DNA of 35,997 nt from an uncultured Sangeribacter sp. (GTDB lineage: Bacteria; Bacteroidota; Bacteroidia; Bacteroidales; Muribaculaceae): NCBI GenBank assembly GCA_964488855.1, contig CAZAWP010000001.1, forward strand, positions 1-35,997, given 5' to 3'. The notes beneath the pieces were generated by a model, which worked only from the letters and a program-made list of their open reading frames with translations, ran no database searches and was not told where the DNA came from. Made by a program: the position numbers and the translations under genes. Below, piece after piece: positions 244 through 35,490 of this stretch (within the stretch, counting starts at the first letter, position 1; each line of letters opens with the position of its first letter).

Positions 244-331
244 GGAGAGGTGGCAGAGTGGTCGATCGCGGCGGTCTTGAAAACCGTTGAGGGTAACACC
301 TCCGGGGGTTCGAATCCCTCCCTCTCCGCCA
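244..331 (+). tRNA. tRNA-Ser(TGA)
   Basis: GGAGAGG/CCTCTCC acceptor stem, anticodon arm GCGGT-CT-TGA-AA-ACCGT, long variable arm, GGTTCGAATCC T-arm, encoded CCA. Confidence 0.97.
313..331 (+). repeat. attL (tRNA 3' end)
   Basis: AATCCCTCCCTCTCCGCCA matches 34636-34654 AATCCCTGTCTCTCCGCCA at 17/19; the last 10 bp are identical. Confidence 0.9.
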
Positions 332-499: not shown

Positions 500-589
500 C
501 AGACTTGCAAAAATAACCTCCTGAAAGGGGCGCTTCTGAGATCATATCATTTATGTTTAATTGTAATCCATGATGAATAAATTTCAATC

Positions 590-1858
590 ATGGATAAAAA
601 AAATTTGTCCAGCCTCAAAGCGTGTTTCACTGTATTAGGGTATACGATACCCGTTGTGCATCAGGGCAATAACCCGTACATTGATTTTTATTACCTGAGT
701 CGAATCACCCGAACCAAGAAACGCAAAAAAATTATGCTGCCGGGTATCCTTAACAGGCTCAAAAAATCGGGAAGAAAGCGAGACGCAACGCGGATGATAA
801 ATCAGTTCATTTCTGATCTGACCGCTAAACTTGAGGCCGGATGGCGTCCCGATGAAGATTACACCACTTTGCCGGTAAAATCCGGCGTTGAAATTACATC
901 AACAAAAATTGACGAATCTGTTACTGTTTCTTTGAGTGATATGCAACCCGCGGAACCGGCACAGCCGGCAAACCGCCAAAAACTTGCAGACCTGTTCGAC
1001 CGCTTCATTTTATCTTGCGGCAAGAAATTACGGCCAAAGTCCCTGAAGTGTTATGAGAGCGGTGTGAACGTCTTGCGCCGGTATAACGACGAGCTCGACG
1101 AACCGATCGTCTATGTCGATCAATTCACCCGGGAATATATTGCAACGTTCCTTGAGCATATATACCTTGACCGCAACAGTAATGCCAGGACCCGAAACAA
1201 TTATCTCGGAATCTGCTCCGCATTCGGCACCTACCTCGAAGAGAAGGGACTGGTCGAGGTTAATCCGACTTTAAAGATCTCAAAACTTGTACCCCCTCCC
1301 AAACGCCGGCAACCACTCACCGAAGAGATGCTCAAGGAGCTGCACGATTTTCTATCAGAGCATGACCCCTACTTCCTGCTTGCCTGTCAGATGCAATATT
1401 ACACCTTGATCAGACCCAACGAGCTTGCACATATTCGCCTTAGCGACATCTCTCTCAAGGATCAGACGGTGACTGTTACCGCCGAGGTGTCCAAAAACAA
1501 GCGCGGTGCCAAGGTCGGATTATCCGCCGAGGTAATCCACCTCATGCTGGATCTGGGAGTCCTTGACAATCCCCCGGGATGTTACCTCTTCAGCAAGGAC
1601 TTCCGCCCCGGTGTGGACTTGCAAAGTCCCGACATCTTTAACAAACGCTGGTGCAAGTGGCGCGCCCGCCTGAAGTGGTCGCCGGATTATAAATTCTACA
1701 GCCTGAAAGATTCCGGAATCCGCGACCTTGCCAACTCCGAGGGCATAGTGATCGCCCGAGACCAGGCCCGACATACCGATATTGCCACTACCAACAAGTA
1801 TTTAGGTCAGATCTCGGGTGCACACGAAGAGACCAAGAAATTTAAAGGGTTTCTATGA
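590..1858 (+). CDS. int: Tyrosine recombinase / phage integrase
   Basis: SAM-like core-binding region (NARTRNNYL), IRPNEL, SKNK, FYSLKDSG, QARH...TTNKY; adjacent to attL. Confidence 0.93.
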   Translation: MDKKNLSSLKACFTVLGYTIPVVHQGNNPYIDFYYLSRITRTKKRKKIMLPGILNRLKKSGRKRDATRMINQFISDLTAKLEAGWRPDEDYTTLPVKSGVEITSTKIDESVTVSLSDMQPAEPAQPANRQKLADLFDRFILSCGKKLRPKSLKCYESGVNVLRRYNDELDEPIVYVDQFTREYIATFLEHIYLDRNSNARTRNNYLGICSAFGTYLEEKGLVEVNPTLKISKLVPPPKRRQPLTEEMLKELHDFLSEHDPYFLLACQMQYYTLIRPNELAHIRLSDISLKDQTVTVTAEVSKNKRGAKVGLSAEVIHLMLDLGVLDNPPGCYLFSKDFRPGVDLQSPDIFNKRWCKWRARLKWSPDYKFYSLKDSGIRDLANSEGIVIARDQARHTDIATTNKYLGQISGAHEETKKFKGFL

Positions 1859-6600: not shown

Positions 6601-8068
6601 CCACGGTCACAAGAGCGCTGTATGCGGTTACGGTGCCACGGGTCATCGCCTCGACGGCGGAGAGAAGTTTTTTACCGAGTTCGACGGTGAGCTCGTGCAT
6701 GGTGTTTTTGGTCTTGTCGAGTCGGGCCTGGACGGTATTATTCTGCACGGCAGCCTCCTTGTCAATGGATACAGCCTCGGCAAAGGCGACATTTGCCGCC
6801 TCCTGCTGCTGTCTGACCTCGTCTATATGGTTGGCAAGGGTCGCTAACGTCTTGACCGAATTTGAACCCTTTTCTCCCATATCCTTAAACATCGGGGAGA
6901 GCACATCCATCTTGCCCGCCTTGTTGAGGGTCGCCAGAAACTCGATGAGGGCACCGTTCATGTCGGTCTTGACCTGTTCGGCAAACTTCTTTGCATCCAG
7001 CCCGGCAACACGGGCATATTTCGCCGGATCCTGATAAAGTCTTACTATCACTTGCGACAGTGCGGTCGATGATGCCTCTACGTTCTGATTATTGCTGTCG
7101 AGGACGGCACCGAATGCCATGATCTGCGGGATCGTCATGTTTGCCTGAGCACCGACACCACCCAGCCGGGAGGTGAACTCGGTGAGATACGGGGCGGAGG
7201 CCTTACAGTTCTGCGACAGTTCATTTACCACCGAACCGACAGAGAGGAGCGCCTTTTCGGTTCCGAGACGGGATTCGTCGCCGAAGATTCCGGCGAGCTT
7301 CGAGAGTGTGAGGGTGGCACCCTCGCCGAGGTCGTCGAGGGCGACATTTACCTTGTCGGCAGCTCGTACGTAGCCGAGGATCTCACCCTCGGTGGTCATG
7401 CCGAGTCTGCCGGCCTCCTGAGCGTATTTGTTCAACTCTTCCCGGGAGTGGCGGGTGTCGATCTTCTTAAATTCCTCGTTGAGGCGCTCCACCTGTTCGG
7501 TGGCCATGCCGGTGTACTTGGAGACGTTAGCCTCCTCCTGCTGCATGGCGGCATAGACATCGACGGCGCGGCGTGCCTGTGTCACCCAGATGGTGACGGC
7601 TGCCACGGCTGCCATGATGCCGCCCCAGCATTTATTCCATATCTGTGTCAGTGAACCGGTACCCTGTTGCTGGTGACGTATCGAGGCGTTTACACGGTCG
7701 ATCTCCTGCTGTACGCGGCGGATACGGGCGGTGTGTTCGTCCCATGCCTTGGTGCCGCGCTGTATGCCGTTGAGCTGGTTCTTGAGTGTCCGGAGAGCCT
7801 TGTTGAGCTCGCGGGGCGAGGCTGTATCGAGATGCCGGAGGGTGTTTTCGAGGGTCACGGTCTGCGAGCGCATGTTGCTGATGGTGGAGCGGACGGACTG
7901 GAGCTCGTTGTTTAGCCGGCGAACAGCCTTCGGGTCGCCCGCCTGTTGAGCGGCATGCAACTGCTGCTCGAGACGCTTTGCCTCTCCTTCGAGCTGCTGA
8001 AGTATCTTTGAGGCCTGACGACCGTTGATCTGTAGGTTGGTCGTGGCGGTGGTGGTGTAGTTTGCCAT
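3686..8068 (-). CDS. Tail tape measure protein
   Basis: ~1460 aa, coiled-coil and Ala-rich with TP901-like core and C-terminal YAVGGFT...AGIVHAGEWV motif; probable start MANYTTT (ATG 8068, A-rich leader) rather than 8107. Confidence 0.9.
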   Translation of the reverse strand: MANYTTTATTNLQINGRQASKILQQLEGEAKRLEQQLHAAQQAGDPKAVRRLNNELQSVRSTISNMRSQTVTLENTLRHLDTASPRELNKALRTLKNQLNGIQRGTKAWDEHTARIRRVQQEIDRVNASIRHQQQGTGSLTQIWNKCWGGIMAAVAAVTIWVTQARRAVDVYAAMQQEEANVSKYTGMATEQVERLNEEFKKIDTRHSREELNKYAQEAGRLGMTTEGEILGYVRAADKVNVALDDLGEGATLTLSKLAGIFGDESRLGTEKALLSVGSVVNELSQNCKASAPYLTEFTSRLGGVGAQANMTIPQIMAFGAVLDSNNQNVEASSTALSQVIVRLYQDPAKYARVAGLDAKKFAEQVKTDMNGALIEFLATLNKAGKMDVLSPMFKDMGEKGSNSVKTLATLANHIDEVRQQQEAANVAFAEAVSIDKEAAVQNNTVQARLDKTKNTMHELTVELGKKLLSAVEAMTRGTVTAYSALVTVVDFIIKYRKEIIAVTAAVGLFTAALNLHTIRLTVAKNATILWNSALGVGKGILPVLRLLILPLTQAVNYFTNGLQVNYTMQERWRKSMQAMKFTHWAGLILAVASAIYVMANRMKEARKAAEEQRQALNRLEAQARANCAEELSMLDQLYKKTQDQTLAQDERIKAVDRLQAKYPQVFKNLSKEEILAGKAADAYNRLRDSILDAARAEGRKQMIADLEKEIQDLQAEYEKEAEYWIGAKWEAMTRGEQMGIPRENDPSYLWAQRNLDIIESKYKPRIDELKKRQEGLAATNAQYIIDNAPATDPDSTVDDLGGGGYTPSPSEKELSKAVKARLAAMKAAYTAEQAENLRQHREGLLDWEKYNEQKLQTEIDYHKDRAEYLKSVGEKDSTQFQESTKKVEELLIKKDDTAYKLGADKIDREAEEKIRDLKKDIYSSGAVDELASKEHEVKLQAIADKMALLKKLGREGTEEYHKLQVELQKIKGDFDVEQAKKIYDSATSIMKKYSTPDFNDELKKLLDTFDSAEAMGLDKEKVEEVRNQAVKDLIKSLLPSGAGAVDDPSATIAQLNKDLETLMAMIGGEHGLTDAQGATARAKLIESYLPDAAKDKKDRDKVRRDMKRDLDFNDSLLAGGVIDEKKHKEMAARIKKYYQDALNPDASKGNDQIVALYTSFVDVFKKIKEGGEGVAGAVANALTAAVAVMQSAMQSFSQYAEACNELEIARLEKRYKKQSELAEGNSVELKRIEKQREKEIAKIKAEQSRKQFALQTALAIATTAQSAVQAYSAALSVGGLAGLILAPIAAAAAVAAGAIQIATIKKQQQAAEVTGYAVGGFTRKGRVNEPAGIVHAGEWVASQKLVNNPATRPLIDILEYAQRTNTLPAITRGDVSARLNAPYTGSSGRNTPETDNYPVMTAPDGGSDVFNRLESVMSRLSERLDEPFVTVNDVTGPTGMKQAFDRYSRLISNKNRQKR

Positions 8069-8147
8069 ATAAATAATTTGTGAGCTGCGGGCCTCACAGA
8101 CCCGCATGAGGAAAGATTACACCGCAAATAAAACACCCGCCGCCGCA

Positions 8148-8185
8148 AATAAAAAAGACGTCCGACCCTCACGAGCCGGACATCC
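8148..8185 (-). terminator. Intrinsic terminator, copy 1 of a perfect 38-bp direct repeat
   Basis: Minus strand GGATGTCCGGCTC-GTGA-GGGTCGGACGTC-TTTTTT; identical to 8735-8772. Confidence 0.8.
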
Positions 8186-8238
8186 CAAATCAAATCTTTG
8201 ATATGAAATATAAATGCTTCAGCAAAACACAGGAGGCC

Positions 8239-8649
8239 TCAGCATAGATCTACAGCAGCCAAGTCGGCTGCGAGCGTTTTAAGACCTTTGCGGATCTTGT
8301 CGACGGTCTTCTCGGAGGGGTGACGGTAACCGGTGGCGTATTGCGACAGCTGTGCCGCCGAGACCCCGGTGAGATTGGCGAGACCCTTGAAGGTCAGCAG
8401 ATGACCGTAATACGACAGGAACGACGGCACATCGTAGGCGAACTTAAAAGAAGCCTCGGTAAACGGAATACCCTGCTTGGCAAAATCCTCTCTAAAGGCC
8501 TCATAAACTCTATACCATTCATCTATAGCCTCCTTGGCAGTTCTACCCTCTCCCATCGGACTATAATTAAGATCATTCTCTTCAGGACAAAGAGAATAAG
8601 ATCCATCCGCCTCTTTATAAACATATACTTTTATTTCTTTCATGGACAT
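8239..8649 (-). CDS. hicB: HicB-like antitoxin with C-terminal XRE HTH (no hicA present)
   Basis: N-terminal ...DGSYS...GEGRTAKEAI... HicB-like fold; C-terminal GLANLTGVSAAQLSQYATG HTH; upstream inverted repeat TGCTATTT-N4-AAATAGCA (~8675-8694). Confidence 0.75.
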   Translation of the reverse strand: MSMKEIKVYVYKEADGSYSLCPEENDLNYSPMGEGRTAKEAIDEWYRVYEAFREDFAKQGIPFTEASFKFAYDVPSFLSYYGHLLTFKGLANLTGVSAAQLSQYATGYRHPSEKTVDKIRKGLKTLAADLAAVDLC

Positions 8650-8734
8650 GCTGTTAAAACAATCTCTAAAATAATGCTATTTTTTGAAATAGCAAAATAA
8701 ATTGAGAAAATAATTAATATTTTTTTGGTGTTGG

Positions 8735-8772
8735 AATAAAAAAGACGTCCGACCCTCACGAGCCGGACATCC
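8735..8772 (-). terminator. Intrinsic terminator, copy 2 of the 38-bp direct repeat
   Basis: Same hairpin and U-tract as 8148-8185; ends the 10203-8806 operon. Confidence 0.8.
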
Positions 8773-8805
8773 AGAAAATTTCAATCATGAATGTAAAAAT
8801 GTCGC

Positions 8806-9204
8806 TTATGGTTCCGGAGCGGTGTCCGGGTCATCGCCGGTGTCCTCGGAATCCTCGCAGGGGTCGAAGTCTTCGTCCTCGTCCTCATCAGCGCCGTCGT
8901 GCCGTTTGAGGGGGGCATTACATGCCGCATCCGCAGAAATCTGAAAGCGGATTGCCTCCTCGCCAACCTGCTGGAGATGTTTGCCAAAGGCGATGAGTGC
9001 CTGAGGGTCATTGGGTAGTTCGAAGCACGTAAGTCCGTATCGGGGATTATCGCCGATGCAGAGGGCAAATTCGTCAGGACCGCCGGGAGTCTCCAAATAC
9101 TCCACTTGAATGGTGGTATTGTTGATGGACATAACAGAGACGCGGACAGGATAATCAGTGTCCTGGAAAGATATTATCTTGTTAGAAGATTCTGAAATAA
9201 GCAT
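8806..9204 (-). CDS. Hypothetical protein with very acidic C-terminal tail
   Basis: 132 aa, A-rich start, tail DGADEDEDEDFDPCEDSEDTGDDPD. Confidence 0.75.
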   Translation of the reverse strand: MLISESSNKIISFQDTDYPVRVSVMSINNTTIQVEYLETPGGPDEFALCIGDNPRYGLTCFELPNDPQALIAFGKHLQQVGEEAIRFQISADAACNAPLKRHDGADEDEDEDFDPCEDSEDTGDDPDTAPEP

Positions 9205-9214
9205 AATATTATTT

Positions 9215-9580
9215 TTAGGGGATTAAAGGTAAATGTTTATTAAGAACATCGTCAATAGACACGTATTGATCAACAGTCTCTATCTCGATTGAAAAATATA
9301 GTTTTTGTATGACTTTGGAAAATATAGACAGCGAAATTGCCCCTATATTGTATATACCTTTGTCATCTCGTAGCCATACAATCTTTGTTGGAAGAGTCCC
9401 GGGATATTTTGCGTCTATGGCGGCTGCAATCTCCTCCATCCTGTTAATCACCTTTAATGTGACACTCTTGCCATGAATCACCAGTCCTTTCAGTCCGAGA
9501 GCCATCTGTGCAAGTTCTTTCCCTTTATCGGATTCTTTGGCAGTTTTGTGTATCCTTACCTCGTATATGTATTTTATCAT
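9215..9580 (-). CDS. Hypothetical protein, paralog of 9592-9960
   Basis: Shares KGK.L..MAL, IHG.S...K..NRM..IAA..D.KYP.T.PT and C-terminal ID..L.K..PL.P with its neighbour. Confidence 0.8.
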   Translation of the reverse strand: MIKYIYEVRIHKTAKESDKGKELAQMALGLKGLVIHGKSVTLKVINRMEEIAAAIDAKYPGTLPTKIVWLRDDKGIYNIGAISLSIFSKVIQKLYFSIEIETVDQYVSIDDVLNKHLPLIP

Positions 9581-9591
9581 AAAACAGATTT

Positions 9592-9960
9592 TTAAGGGTT
9601 AAGGGGGATAAATTTATCTAATATCTCGTCGATTACCGCATCATGTGCGACAGTGTTGAACGTAATGCGGAAATATTCTTTATCGAGAGAGCGGGTGCCA
9701 TTTTCGGACGCAGGGCATGCCGTTATCTGTCCGTTCCCCTCGTTGTCGATATGGCAATCAATAAAGGTCGGACGTGTACGGGGATATTTGACATCAAGCT
9801 GAGCTGCAATCATACGCATTCGGTTCGCTATCTTTATTGCGGAACTGTATCCATGAATAAGAACTCGGTCAAATTGAAGAGCCATCGTCTGAAGAGCCTT
9901 GCCTTTTGCTGTTTTCCCGGCAGTTGAGAATGTTGTTACCGGGTGAAAGAATTTCATCAT
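9592..9960 (-). CDS. Hypothetical protein, paralog of 9215-9580
   Basis: Same motifs as its paralog; near-identical start region TAAAAATCT.TTTTATGAT. Confidence 0.8.
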   Translation of the reverse strand: MMKFFHPVTTFSTAGKTAKGKALQTMALQFDRVLIHGYSSAIKIANRMRMIAAQLDVKYPRTRPTFIDCHIDNEGNGQITACPASENGTRSLDKEYFRITFNTVAHDAVIDEILDKFIPLNP

Positions 9961-9978
9961 AAAATAGATTTTTAAAGG

Positions 9979-10203
9979 TTAGATTTCGGTTGAGAGGGTT
10001 GTGAGGAGGAGGAGGGCTGCGAGGTGGTTGAGCGCGTCGATGCCGGAGGCTATGCCGGCGAGGGCGAGGACGAGGGCGGCGGCATATAGCGCCGGGGCAT
10101 GGCGGCGGATGGCGGCGCGGCAGCGGTTACGGACGATGCGGTAAAAATCGCGGATTGGTTCAACGCCGGCAGCGCCGACGGTCTTTAGATAAGTTGCCTT
10201 CAT
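9979..10203 (-). CDS. Small hydrophobic protein (74 aa), first gene under C4/CI-like antisense control
   Basis: Start MKATYLKT (ATG 10203); basic N-terminus and hydrophobic C-terminal helices. Confidence 0.65.
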   Translation of the reverse strand: MKATYLKTVGAAGVEPIRDFYRIVRNRCRAAIRRHAPALYAAALVLALAGIASGIDALNHLAALLLLTTLSTEI

Positions 10204-10238
10204 TGTTGTAGATGTTTTGGCATTACAGACAGAAAAAC

Positions 10239-10313
10239 GGCTGTCATATCCCGTTCGCCAAAACATCTACAAGGTTTCCTCCGCAGAGCAAAAATTGTGT
10301 GGATATGACAGCC
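10239..10313 (-). ncRNA. P4-CI / P1-C4-like antisense RNA
   Basis: 13-bp closing stem (10239-10251 / 10301-10313) enclosing two segments complementary to the transcript 5' leader (10391-10400, 10415-10427) and to the start region of the next ORF (10206-10221). Confidence 0.7.
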
Positions 10314-10431
10314 TTTATGAATTACAGCTGATATGTATGTGAGGAGTCGGGCATAAAAAAAGCCCGAGCAGATTCGAGCATTTATCCGAATGCTCCGCGG
10401 TTACGGGATACCCCGTAGATGATTGGCACCA

Positions 10432-10463
10432 CAAAAGTACATAATAATTTTTAATTATGCAAA
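10432..10463 (-). promoter_or_regulatory. Sigma-A promoter of the antisense-RNA / small-ORF operon
   Basis: Minus strand TTTG (10463-10460) - 20 nt - TACTTTTG (10439-10432). Confidence 0.75.
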
Positions 10464-10471
10464 TAAAAAAT

Positions 10472-10618
10472 AAAAAACCCCCGCCAGTCCGGCGAGGGCT
10501 ACCGCTCTAAGTGAAATGGATTGCTAAATCATACAAGACGCAGAGCGGTCAGTTCCGAACCGAGGTTTAATCCTCGGTGTTATCAGCGACTTAACCCGGC
10601 AATCTTGCGAGTGCCGGC
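10472..10618 (-). ncRNA. Candidate ~150-nt structured small RNA
   Basis: TATATTTG -7 box at 10631-10624; hairpins at 10596-10617, 10559-10578 and 10501-10549; terminator 10478-10498 with U6; no ORF. Confidence 0.55.
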
Positions 10619-10854
10619 ACCGGCAAATATAGCGATTTTAAGCGATTTTTCACCGTAAAAAATCGGGTTTTCATGCGGTTTGTAAAGGGTTGAGGATGTT
10701 TAACGCCTGATTTTTAGGGGTTTGGGAGGTAAAAATAAAAAAATTGGTTAATGTTTGCCGTTAAAGAGCCCCCGACCACCCTGTCAGGGGGTCGGTTCAC
10801 CGCCCCTTTTTTCGGCGGAATATGCAAGACCCTGCACCAACAGCCGGGTAATAC

Positions 10855-11116
10855 AAAAAACAAGACCGAGGCTCTCACGAGTCCCGGTCTTCGTCACTAA
10901 TATGCAAAATGTTTACGTCGTTGCAATCCACCCGCACATCACTGCGAGGGATAGATTAAGGAGTATGCCCTAACCTATTAATTCACTAACCTGTTAAGAC
11001 ATTGTCTATTTGTATACGAGAATATCTGCAAAATCTAACGGATGCCACAGCATCCGGGATAAACTATACATAACATTATGAAACGATGTAATAATTCATC
11101 TGGCACTGACTTATTA
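10855..11116 (-). ncRNA. Candidate small-RNA array: three anti-start-codon segments, each followed by a hairpin
   Basis: TATATTTG -7 box at 11129-11122; hairpins at 11039-11056, 10925-10957 (GTGA loop) and 10862-10891 (GTGA loop, U-tract); no credible ORF. Confidence 0.6.
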
Positions 11117-11196
11117 CACTGCAAATATAATACATATCTGTAAAATAATTGCAATTCTGCATAAACAAATTTTACATAAACATGAATTTTACTAAT

Positions 11197-11739
11197 TCAA
11201 TTGCTATTGGTGTGGCGTCGGTTGTCGAGGTAGAGGATGAGGGCGATCAGGGCAATGGAGAAGAAGAATGCCCATAGGGAGCGGGTTGTGTCGGTGTCGC
11301 GGCGGGTGTCGGTGTCGTCGATGGCTGCCGCCGATGAAGATGCAACCGTCGATAATCCGGAGACGGCAACGGAGTCGGTAGCAACCGCCGAGACGGCAGC
11401 CATCGAGCCACTGAGAGCCTCTGTGGAGCCTTTTCTGCCTGCTGCCTTAATCTCGGTTGAACGTCGATACGTGCCGGCGCTGTCGCGGCTCTCGTTAATG
11501 AGGATGTGTAACGTTGTCACCGCCGAATCGGCACGGGTCAGAGCCGTAGTGGTCACAACCGTATCGAGGCGGGCGGTGGTTATATGTGTCATGGAATCCA
11601 CCACAAGCGCCGTAGAGGCTTGTGCGGTCGCGGATGAGTGATTGACCGTGTGCACGGTCTTCGGGCTGCATGAACAGCCACACGCCAAAAACAGGGCACT
11701 CAGCAGCAGTATGCAAAGGATCTTGATAAAAATTTTCAT
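11197..11739 (-). CDS. Spanin-like lipoprotein (possible unimolecular spanin)
   Basis: Start MKIFIKILCILLLSALFLACGC (signal peptide II-like), Thr/Ser-rich middle, C-terminal TM helix LWAFFFSIALIALILYL; follows the endolysin. Confidence 0.65.
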   Translation of the reverse strand: MKIFIKILCILLLSALFLACGCSCSPKTVHTVNHSSATAQASTALVVDSMTHITTARLDTVVTTTALTRADSAVTTLHILINESRDSAGTYRRSTEIKAAGRKGSTEALSGSMAAVSAVATDSVAVSGLSTVASSSAAAIDDTDTRRDTDTTRSLWAFFFSIALIALILYLDNRRHTNSN

Positions 11740-27005: not shown

Positions 27006-27474
27006 TGGTTATTCTTTTGCGGCGCGCATTGAGATACTGGATGCGTAACCGGCGGTATCTCTTTACGAGCGTGTTAAAATTAGTTTCGGTGTCCTCTATG
27101 CCCCGCGAGTCCATAAATGATTCTATCAATATCTTTTGTGATGACCCTATTACCCCGCATTTATGCAAAGTAGTGAACAGGTCCACGTCAAAACGGGCGC
27201 GGATGGCATCCATCAGAGCCTCGGTCGCCTTGGGTGAAAAATAATTTTGTATCCACGGTTTCACCCCCGGGGTATGAGGGATGATCACGGCAAGGTCTCC
27301 CGGATCCGGCAACTTCGGGGTGTCGTTGGCACGGGGCGATCGCACGAACTGCTGCACGATCTTTGATTCTATCGACCCCTTGAAGAGCCTTACCGGTTCG
27401 ACACCTCCCATCGAATTGACAAACCATTGCCGGAGGTAGGGTTCCATTTTGAGATATATGTAATTTTCATTCAT
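26941..27474 (-). CDS. Hypothetical protein, candidate late-gene regulator
   Basis: 177 aa with basic C-terminal helix (TLVKRYRRLR), located between the origin and the head genes; function inferred from position. Confidence 0.55.
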   Translation of the reverse strand: MNENYIYLKMEPYLRQWFVNSMGGVEPVRLFKGSIESKIVQQFVRSPRANDTPKLPDPGDLAVIIPHTPGVKPWIQNYFSPKATEALMDAIRARFDVDLFTTLHKCGVIGSSQKILIESFMDSRGIEDTETNFNTLVKRYRRLRIQYLNARRKRITNECKSAELSGSEKDLDGDRSK

Positions 27475-27665
27475 GTTTGCGGTTGCAGTTTGAAATCATT
27501 CTAAATAAGGAATTTTCAATTAAATATACAAAAAAAATGGCAATTTTACAATTTATTTAACTGATTATTAATGTATTAATTGGTAAAATCACGTAAAAAA
27601 GGGTCGGGCAGAAAAATAGGGGTCAAAAATTTTTTGCACTCAGATGTCTATTTAGAAACGCATTT

Positions 27666-27887
27666 AAGTGTGCTAACTGTGCTACCGTATGTAACTTATT
27701 ATCATACAGCTATTTAAGTAGCACAATCAGGGGTGTGCTATCGGTTGTGCTGAAGTGTGCTGAAGTGTGCTAAGCACAGTTAGCACACCCTTAGCACACC
27801 TTTAGCACACTTCAAATTGCGGGAAGTGTGCTATAATAAATGTAATACTTTTAATCATTTACACAGCAATAGCACAGTAGCACACTT
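27666..27887. repeat. Iteron cluster, probable phage replication origin
   Basis: 7 x TGTGCT and 7 x AGCACA arranged roughly symmetrically about ~27772, with AT-rich flanks. Confidence 0.75.
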
Positions 27888-28044
27888 ATTATGCCGCTTT
27901 ATTTAGATAAAAATAAAAGAATAATATATAAAAATATTTATCTATCCGCGCAGCGAAAAATTTTTAACCGACATTCCCCGAAAAAATAAGGCAAGGAAAT
28001 GGTGCGGTCGAATGCCATCGACGCCCCGCATAAAGACCCCTCCA

Positions 28045-29862: not shown

Positions 29863-30723
29863 TTATTTACGTTTCTTGATTTTTAATTGACCATGTTTGC
29901 GATAGAGATTGTTAAACGAATTATCGCAATATATGGTGTCATAAACCTGTTCATAAGTGTATTCCGGGAATTGCTCTGCTATCTGAGGGATGGTGAGATC
30001 ACATTCTATTAGATACCCGAGTTTTCTTCTGTCAATATCTTTTATTACTTCATAATCCCCATCTTTATAGCTGGATGGACGCGGTCTCTTGTCTAACCGT
30101 TCAATATACGCCGAATATTTTACACCCCACCGATGAAGCCATCTCTGTAAAGTATTGCGGTCTACTCCGAAGTTTTGAGCTAAACGCCTTTCCGGGACAC
30201 CCCATTTAAACTGCTCTATTACTTGATCTTTTTTCTCACTCAGATCAGTTATGGGGGCCGAAGCTAAAATCCCCGGTGGTCTACCAAGCAATATACCCTG
30301 TTTCACTCTTAATCTCAACCCCTCTTTAGTACGTTGCCGGATCATCTGACGCTCGATCTCAGCCGAAAGACCAAAGGCAAAGGCAAGAACCTTGCTCTGT
30401 ATATCATCACCCAAAACAAAGCGGTCCTTGACTGTATATATTATACATCCCCGTTCCATGCAAAAATGCAGAATATCCATTACCATGTACAAGTCACGGC
30501 CTAAGCGACTGATTTCCGAACTTATAATGATGTCCTCTTTTTGTACAATCTTGAGCAACGGTCCAAGATTGCGTTTATCGGGATTCTTGCCACCACTCAC
30601 CCCCTCGTCTGTGATATATCTGTCGATAGTCCACCCTTTATCTTTTGCAAACTGGTCGACTCCTTGTTTCTGGGAGTTCACATCCTGATCATCGGAACTT
30701 ACCCTTAAATATCCGTATATCAT
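29863..30723 (-). CDS. Serine recombinase (resolvase/invertase family) with extended HTH C-terminus
   Basis: MIYGYLRVSS..Q, SEISRLGR, AEIER..IRQRTKEGL, LGRP, followed by two HTH-like segments. Confidence 0.9.
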   Translation of the reverse strand: MIYGYLRVSSDDQDVNSQKQGVDQFAKDKGWTIDRYITDEGVSGGKNPDKRNLGPLLKIVQKEDIIISSEISRLGRDLYMVMDILHFCMERGCIIYTVKDRFVLGDDIQSKVLAFAFGLSAEIERQMIRQRTKEGLRLRVKQGILLGRPPGILASAPITDLSEKKDQVIEQFKWGVPERRLAQNFGVDRNTLQRWLHRWGVKYSAYIERLDKRPRPSSYKDGDYEVIKDIDRRKLGYLIECDLTIPQIAEQFPEYTYEQVYDTIYCDNSFNNLYRKHGQLKIKKRK

Positions 30724-34635: not shown

Positions 34636-34654
34636 AATCCCTGTCTCTCCGCCA
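34636..34654 (+). repeat. attR
   Basis: AATCCCTGTCTCTCCGCCA, duplicating the tRNA-Ser 3' end. Confidence 0.9.
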
Positions 34655-34794: not shown

Positions 34795-35490
34795 TTACTT
34801 TATTATTATCCAACGACCGCCATTCTTATCGCCTTCGCGTATTAAAACTCCTGACACTTGTAATTTTGCAATGTCTCGTTCGATGGTTCTATCCGATACT
34901 GACAACTTCTCTGAAAGTTGCACTGCGGTAATAAATGGATCGCTCTTGATGATTTCAAGTATTGCATTGTACCTTTCAGCAATTTTTTTCTGAGTCGTGG
35001 TTAATGCATTCTTTCCGACATTCTTTCCGACATCGCTTCCGACATCGCTTCCGACATTATCTACGCCACTATCTACGCCATTATCTACGCCACTATCTCC
35101 GACATTATCTACGCCACTATCTCCGACATTTTCTCCGACATTTTTATTAAGTCGCTTAAAGACTGTACGTTCTATTAATATTTGGACACCGCCAAAATGA
35201 TCTACGACAGTGGGTATTGGCAGCCCTTTATTCTTGAAGCCCGTGTATATCTTATTATAGCCCCGTCCCCAAGTGTCAATAAATCCTGCCTTAAACATTG
35301 CCCCGGCAATCTTAGGATTACGAGGTCTCGACGGATGGTTGGCATATAATGTATCAGCCGTATAGCCTTCAGGAAGACTACCGTCATTCCATATTTCTAT
35401 TCGGTCATCATATACGTGCATTTGAATTGCCGGTCCCATATAATTTTTATGAGCAATCGCATTATAGACTATTTCTCGCAATGCTTCCAT
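34795..35490 (-). pseudogene. 5'-truncated HATPase_c_4 + HTH protein ('RecG C-terminal'-like regulator)
   Basis: Begins mid-domain at IP(M)EALREIVYNAIAH with an in-frame stop five codons upstream; PRNP.IA and GRGY motifs; C-terminal HTH. Confidence 0.65.
35007..35142. repeat. 12-bp coding tandem repeat (~11 units)
   Basis: CATTCTTTCCGA / CATCGCTTCCGA / CAYTATCTACGC variants encoding NVG[EDKS] / SGVD tetrapeptides. Confidence 0.9.

Follow-up and report, generated by a model that had tools for sequence, protein, structure and literature searches.

The CI RNA of bacteriophage P4 is an antisense immunity RNA comparable to the c4 RNA of phages P1 and P7. The immI region of P1 and P7 consists of the c4 antisense RNA, icd and ant (PMC8198154, PMC12197685), and in the available text on P1 the c4 RNA is described as needed for repression of icd and ant (PMC8198154). 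In phage lambda, sib lowers Int post-transcriptionally early in infection and prevents premature integration; according to the accessible part of the report it acts in cis, from a position downstream of int on the same transcript (PMC5300877). OppZ and CarZ of Vibrio cholerae are sRNAs derived from operon 3'UTRs, which inhibit translation by base pairing; as far as the available text describes them, the transcripts from which they derive are also their targets, and they are released by RNase E cleavage (PMC7398697). GibS and FopS of Bacteroides thetaiotaomicron repress by pairing across the start codon (PMC7366714, PMC11697453), and the accessible text on FopS describes 14 members (nine intergenic, four antisense and one 3'UTR-derived) that use one fixed R1 seed against many host targets (PMC11697453).

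The locus analyzed here, from a prophage of an uncultured Sangeribacter sp. (Muribaculaceae), resembles immI of P1/P7 and CI of P4 in that a leader antisense to the start region of the first gene is followed by a small hydrophobic gene, but it differs from immI in that the leader has no Rfam match and the operon no match to an antirepressor family; the available parts of the immI descriptions (PMC8198154, PMC12197685) mention no anti-integrase 3' end. Whereas sib acts in cis, the predicted pairing here is in trans, at the int start, with an RNA from the opposite strand. As in OppZ and CarZ, a coding operon contains the seed and the terminator in its 3'UTR, no internal promoter was found and the target-specific complementarity is conserved, but the predicted target is another, convergent gene at a distance of 1-15 kb. 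GibS and FopS, from the same phylum, share with our locus a single-stranded (here predicted) AU-rich anti-start-codon seed followed by an intrinsic terminator; in contrast to the fixed R1 seed, the segment beside the terminator is phage-specific and directed against one phage gene. Membership in the FopS/GibS R1-seed family was rejected: only the UUCAU core is shared with the 5' sequence in primers AWO-241/AWO-881, and the 16-nt R1 pattern, with up to 2 mismatches allowed, has no match on contig C1. The RRM domain (PF00076), the domain of the protein RbpB that binds RNAs of this family, was not found in the assembly, whose completeness of 73% means that absence is not implied. A literature search, with subscription journals largely outside it, found no published phage 3'UTR RNA directed against an integrase start, and the word "integrase" does not occur in a 2025 review of phage sRNAs.

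The prophage and the match to the integrase start

The window, i.e. the whole stretch of DNA that was analyzed (35,997 nt), is contig C1 of a 2.2-Mb assembly (73% complete) and contains a prophage integrated at a tRNA-Ser(TGA) gene (Table 1). The primase, head, terminase, lysis and tape-measure genes are encoded on the minus strand and directed towards int, and the related loci are almost all from Bacteroidales. Several further elements were observed: three short direct repeats on the plus strand between attL and int (472-499), which resemble integrase arm-type sites; a serine resolvase/invertase gene adjoining the primase (29863-30723, minus strand); a cluster of short GTGCT/AGCAC repeats (27640-27900), which may be a replication origin; and, outside attR, a RecG-C/HTH gene (34795-35490, minus strand) with a region of 12-nt tandem repeats at 35007-35141. 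Gene starts show an A-rich pattern with no G-rich Shine-Dalgarno signal, a pattern known for Bacteroidota from the accessible part of the literature (PMC7366714).

Table 1. Positions of the features of the window discussed in the text.
Feature	Position	Strand	Remarks
tRNA-Ser(TGA) gene, integration site	244..331	+	10-nt att core 322-331, repeated at 34645-34654 (attR)
Target: int translation-initiation region and first codons	579..602	+	AUG predicted inside 5'UTR hairpin
Tyrosine integrase gene (int), 422 aa	590..1858	+	phrog_1; PF00589, PF13102
Exact duplicate of the 38-nt terminator	8148..8185	-	Ends HTH gene 8649-8239; 5' neighbour is a different anti-AUG segment, with no int match
3'UTR with seed and terminator, 71 nt	8735..8805	-	Follows 132-aa ORF 9204-8806
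Intrinsic terminator	8735..8772	-	13-bp stem 8743-8772, GUGA tetraloop 8756-8759, U tract; predicted protected RNA 3' end
Anti-integrase seed (predicted)	8776..8799	-	17-bp core 8776-8792 (14 Watson-Crick, one G-U, 2 Watson-Crick), 2 mismatches, 5 pairs
Last operon gene, 132 aa, acidic tail	8806..9204	-	No family match; 3'UTR is the seed/terminator module
Gene for 121-aa paralogue of the following entry, 40% identical	9215..9580	-	
Gene for 121-aa protein	9592..9957	-	No clear fold match (best Z 5.0)
First operon gene, 74 aa, hydrophobic C-terminus	9979..10203	-	No family match
c4/CI-like leader	10204..10431	-	5' box 10427-10415; terminator-like attenuator ~10379-10349
Leader hairpin	10313-10238	-	Carries antisense 10272-10257; target 10221-10206 just before first AUG
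Bacteroidota primary-sigma promoter (predicted)	10432..10463	-	TTTG 10463-10460, TAnnTTTG 10439-10432; consensus as given in the available text of PMC7366714

The first-pass annotation of this DNA had reported that plus-strand positions 8776-8789 are identical to 579-592, across the int ATG at 590, and this was confirmed base for base. The pairing is also as it described, with 14 Watson-Crick pairs, a G-U pair at int 593, two more pairs (17 altogether), two mismatches and five pairs at 598-602, and the GUGA-loop terminator with its 13 pairs and U tract indeed lies directly 3' of the seed on the minus strand. The seed thus described spans positions -11 to +13 of int around the AUG. The module (the seed and the terminator) is located on the strand opposite to int, ~6.9 kb beyond the int stop, with the seed ~8 kb from the int start. 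The seed is predicted to be mostly unpaired, with one weak 4-bp stem. No TAnnTTTG box was found on the minus strand within 260 nt upstream of the 3'UTR module, so the RNA is likely to be derived from the 3'UTR and not separately promoted.

Ranking of the seed against the host and phage gene starts, which had been proposed as a check, placed int first among 1407 called starts, with a duplex energy of -22.3 kcal/mol against -20.1 for the runner-up; int is also the sole start among 2914 with an ATG-anchored run of 14 nt matching the seed; 11- to 14-mers ending in the int ATG have just two occurrences in the 2.2-Mb assembly. The start of the 177-aa ORF at 27474, named earlier as a weaker alternative target, proved far weaker (-14.2 vs -22.3 kcal/mol for int) and was rejected. 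A plus-strand gene start at 8787 was likewise rejected, as its frame has 40 codons and overlaps the 132-aa ORF; the corresponding frames in relatives have 5 to 157 codons. Autoregulation of the operon's own genes was also discarded, since starts in the window other than int score at most 11.3, vs 17.3. The predicted net binding after subtraction of opening costs is -3.5 kcal/mol here (with an assumed 70-nt leader) and -1.8 to -13.8 kcal/mol across the seven clearest cases described below; it is weak because the int leader is folded, and the pairing may therefore need a chaperone or co-transcriptional access. The caution of the first-pass annotation about chance was justified for the match taken singly, as the window contains 17 exact repeats of at least 14 nt, so that a lone 14-mer is at the chance level; it is the comparative tests that exclude chance.

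Comparative analysis of integrase loci

Searches with int peptides revealed no close relatives of the prophage in viral or metagenome contigs, and the exact terminator was not found in viral contigs or in 200 genomes of the genus. The discovery set was assembled from 20 loci of the genus and 240 loci from viral, metagenome and genome collections (261 including the window), of which 216 have an int start candidate; 129 of these are unique and 121 have at least 300 nt downstream. Most discovery loci reach 10 kb past int and two strong modules were found at 12.7 and 14.7 kb, so the measured prevalence is a lower bound.

Of the 121 loci, 10 have a terminator-adjacent match (score of at least 13) to their own int start, compared with 3 of the 1472 other genes in these loci (Fisher p = 1e-9, with kinship ignored). 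The longest copies of the own int start adjoin an opposite-strand terminator (L005, 19 nt; L017, 18 nt; L009, 18 nt; L343, 16 nt; L003, 16 nt; the window, 14 nt; L205, 14 nt; L201, 14 nt); in L002 the match is 27 nt long and includes four G-U-type changes as well as two mismatches. Among the 38 strong copies of int starts (score of at least 12), 10 of the 25 in the int-strand orientation are located beside an opposite-strand terminator, vs none of the 13 in the other orientation. All 10 terminator-adjacent copies have G(U/C)GA in the terminator loop.

The seeds differ from one another, each tracking its own int start (window, L002, L003, L005, L009, L017, L343). The covariation of the guide with the int start in related prophages, which the first-pass annotation had put forward as a check, is thereby found in seven prophages with different terminator-adjacent segments. 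The integrases of the seven clearest cases are 30-61% identical, and the module label needs 7 changes on the integrase tree (calculated by a quick method from 92 of 129 rows, with the window on a long branch). When all 129 int starts were ranked by duplex energy, the own int was first in six of the seven clearest cases and third in L002. In eight further modules of the common A-rich type the own int ranks 9-93 of 129, because many int starts share this type; many such modules fit the int starts of other phages no worse than their own. A 15x15 matrix of seeds and int starts is biased by the way of choosing its rows. Changes compatible with G-U pairing show no significant bias (16 vs 18 when counted over fixed windows and 10 vs 5 when counted over the cores); G-U bias was therefore rejected as proof of RNA pairing, and RNA pairing is not proven over DNA identity.

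A held-out set was collected by a family-wide search, with 52 new stretches yielding 50 int starts, 37 of them new. Under a loose rule, modules were found in 5 of 37 loci (L399, L403, L407 with two copies, L411 and L416, the last of which is doubtful), compared with 15 of 328 control genes (p = 0.04), several of the 15 control matches being duplicated gene starts with weak hairpins. Under a rule that combines G(U/C)GA with dG of -15 or lower, derived from the discovery set and applied after the hits had been seen, the counts are 4 of 37 vs 1 of 328 (p = 4e-4). L424 and L427 are additional gapped or weak cases. The orientation is again one-sided: 6 of 9 held-out copies in the antisense-making orientation lie beside a terminator, vs 0 of 6 in the opposite one. 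Finally, 83 segments from 61 of 166 loci were selected blind to int, by the sole criterion that a G(U/C)GA terminator located downstream of int follows on their 3' side. Ten of them share a common substring of at least 13 nt with the own int start, vs 2.1 expected from the int starts of other phages, in a comparison in which kin are not independent and shared int starts raise rather than lower the null. The own int is strictly at rank 1 in 5 cases (~0.5 expected), and none of 5000 label permutations reached 10 own-int matches. Judged by these comparisons, the match is real and selected.

The module is patchy, i.e. missing from most of the relatives examined by sequence. It was not found in L004, L007, L012 and L013 (at best partial in L013) over ~32-40 kb each, in L001 (the sister of L003), in the leader operons L372 and L373, or in three Porphyromonas phage records (two covered completely and one in part). 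In L006 and L007 the GUGA terminator is accompanied by an anti-AUG segment, but this segment has no match to the int of its own locus. The expectation that complementarity to int is kept wherever homologous prophages keep the hairpin was thus borne out in part: it stands for the seven covarying prophages and fails for many relatives, in which the GUGA terminator or the leader operon is retained and int is not matched.

The parent operon and its leader

The C4-like control of the operon, suggested earlier, is real as an architecture, with a promoter, a three-box leader, an antisense/target pair and compensatory changes. The leader is strongly folded (z -4.96), and the interior of its hairpin carries a 16-nt antisense to the region preceding the first AUG. 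The same layout with a different antisense/target pair (13-20 nt) was identified in nine of 14 other module loci (L002, L003, L005, L009, L014, L017, L212, L233, L324), and the flanking stem of the leader is conserved, with compensatory changes. A profile of the leader has matches in 21 of 129 discovery loci, all of them on the strand that converges on int, and a single match in the window's assembly. The Rfam search reported only the tRNA above the gathering threshold in the window, and within 7900-11300 it gave no C4-type match at E values up to 10.

For the four operon proteins no Pfam, PHROG or NCBIfam match, no antirepressor family match and no solved homologue were found. The protein encoded at 9592-9957 has 71 homologue clusters among the matches listed (one being its own), none of which has a Pfam assignment or a name. 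In the Bacteroides-type cassettes the last gene encodes a predicted winged helix (pLDDT 81; FurB DNA-binding domain, Z 8.2, rmsd 3.2, 73 residues aligned), and no homologue of this family was detected in the window's operon. Excisionases are winged helices.

In the seven clearest cases 7-43 nt separate the module from the last stop codon of a leader operon, at a distance of 1.2 to 14.7 kb from int. To judge from gene order, the module is usually found at the end of a mobile operon that begins with a c4/CI-like three-box leader, although leader and module are only loosely associated: among nine discovery leader loci found independently of int matching, L338 has the module, L013 has it in part and seven have none, and among the 11 held-out leader loci 3-4 have the module and 7 or 8 do not. 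A second leader operon with a near-identical module (L376:10097, L376:10692-10920; G002:C7) lies 28 kb from the L005 int, before another tape-measure gene, and possibly reflects tandem prophages. Complementarity, terminator, 3'UTR position, orientation, three-box leader and covariation of the seed with the int start are established at the level of sequence.

Between the lysis gene and the tape-measure gene of the window (8100-11200, minus strand) there are five terminator-like hairpins on the same strand, which implies that the tail genes need antitermination or a promoter of their own. The terminator of the 3'UTR module is duplicated exactly over 38 nt (Table 1), which was overlooked in the first-pass annotation. 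The two identical terminators flank the HTH gene 8239-8649 (minus strand, 136 aa), an arrangement that suggests a cassette insertion or a terminator duplication. Pfam assigns only HTH_3 to this gene, which we take to be HicB-like by motif, and there is no hicA beside it. The segment adjoining the second terminator matches the start of an unrelated hicA gene (from locus L009) over 15 nt; an anti-hicA role of this segment was rejected, as tblastn found no hicA in the assembly and five other HicB-like loci have no such segment.

Alternative explanations

The second terminator bears on a reading in which the module is a generic 3' end of Bacteroidota transcripts, with a U-rich anti-AUG segment that serves as a FopS/GibS-like broad seed or as a protein-binding site, and the int match is its best fit by chance. 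TCATA occurs within ~75 nt upstream of 23 of 57 GUGA terminators of Bacteroidota phages, vs 4.9 in shuffled sequences; just one of 34 anti-AUG guides (the int guide of the window) has a convincing target in its own locus, leaving 33 with none; and the remaining two GUGA terminators of the window are also preceded by anti-AUG segments, of which that of the second terminator fits the foreign hicA start. C-GUGA-G terminators with an anti-AUG segment and no matching real gene on the opposite strand were observed in IMG/VR loci L023-L128, at 10860-10895 of the window and on host contigs C115 and C175. To judge by their sequences, anti-AUG segments before C-GUGA-G terminators may represent a widespread type of 3'UTR seed or else a site bound by a protein. 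However, a generic end does not predict the specificity for the own int (10 matches vs 2.1 expected in the int-blind test, five strict first ranks, 10/121 vs 3/1472 in the discovery set), nor that int starts quite unlike one another are matched over 16-19 nt, and we regard it as an unlikely explanation of the int match.

The remaining readings accept the match and assign it another role. The two copies could act as DNA, by binding one phage protein (e.g. the winged-helix protein of the operon in relatives, or Int), or be remnants of recombination, with the terminator incidental. They are direct repeats on the DNA, the absence of a significant G-U bias is compatible with this reading, and the predicted winged helix encoded at the end of the Bacteroides-type cassettes (best Z 8.2) would be a candidate for the binding protein. 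Yet an operator needs neither a fixed orientation nor a terminator, whereas the copy is centred on the AUG, always in the antisense-making orientation and directly 5' of a terminator (10/25 vs 0/13 and 6/9 vs 0/6); moreover, the window's operon has no detected homologue of the winged-helix family, and the arm-like short direct repeats are located elsewhere, at 472-499. A role at the DNA level thus appears very improbable. Alternatively, the RNA may pair with the int mRNA but with an outcome other than simple repression coupled to the c4-like operon, as a late-phase signal produced by read-through from the structural operon, a trigger of int mRNA cleavage or a means of remodelling the int leader hairpin. 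The terminator is located just past the int stop, on the convergent strand, in L343, L205, L233, L201, L017 and L399; in L135, L316, L201, L407 and L411 the module is present but no leader match was obtained in the stretch covered; and the seed overlaps the 3' arm of the conserved int 5'UTR hairpin. Such outcomes seem quite improbable to us, as in every case the AUG itself lies within the seed, which would hardly be expected of activation, and most strong cases are found at the end of a leader operon.

Proposed function

Considering the complementarity and its covariation, we propose that the antisense RNA at the 3' end of the operon likely pairs with the int mRNA in trans and would block translation of Int while the operon is on. 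From the arrangement of the locus we infer its transcription, the pairing, the loss of Int translation, the timing and a processed sRNA of ~60-70 nt. Transcription from the promoter would either stop in the leader or continue to 8735. By analogy with c4 in P1, the internal antisense RNA of the leader would shut the operon in the lysogen. With the operon open, either directly upon infection or at the time of lytic commitment, its 3' end (whole or trimmed to ~60-70 nt) would cover the A-rich initiation region and the AUG of int; repression is the likely sign of the effect, since GibS and FopS repress by pairing over an A-rich region and the AUG. Int would be kept low until the leader clamps down, and integration would be delayed or prevented, which is the job of sib in lambda; once immunity is set, the anti-int end would disappear, Int would rise and integration would follow. 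Transcripts reading through from the late operon could have this 3' end as well, most obviously in relatives whose terminator follows closely upon the int stop, on the strand opposite to int.

A hairpin in the int 5'UTR, upstream of or over the AUG, is conserved with varying sequence in L005, L009, L017, L343, L205, L233, L212, L135, L324 and the window (530-600). According to this structure prediction, int translation is probably also damped in cis.

Taken further, the mobile transcript of a family of temperate Bacteroidales phages may carry two antisense switches in series, a c4-like lock at its 5' end that would determine if the operon is expressed and a phage-specific anti-integrase seed at its 3' end that would silence Int during such expression; together they would form an all-RNA timer of integration, with the GUGA-terminator end as a reusable scaffold on which the seed is retuned to new start codons. 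We advance this model tentatively, with confidence just short of even.

Little is known about the timing of integration in temperate phages of the dominant gut Bacteroidales. The circuit proposed here, in which the end of an early operon would control the integrase in trans and in an allele-specific manner, would be a different solution from that of sib in lambda. Seed/target pairs that occur naturally in several phages can serve directly as controls of specificity, and the enrichment of anti-AUG segments before GUGA terminators suggests that there are many more 3'UTR regulators in the phylum.
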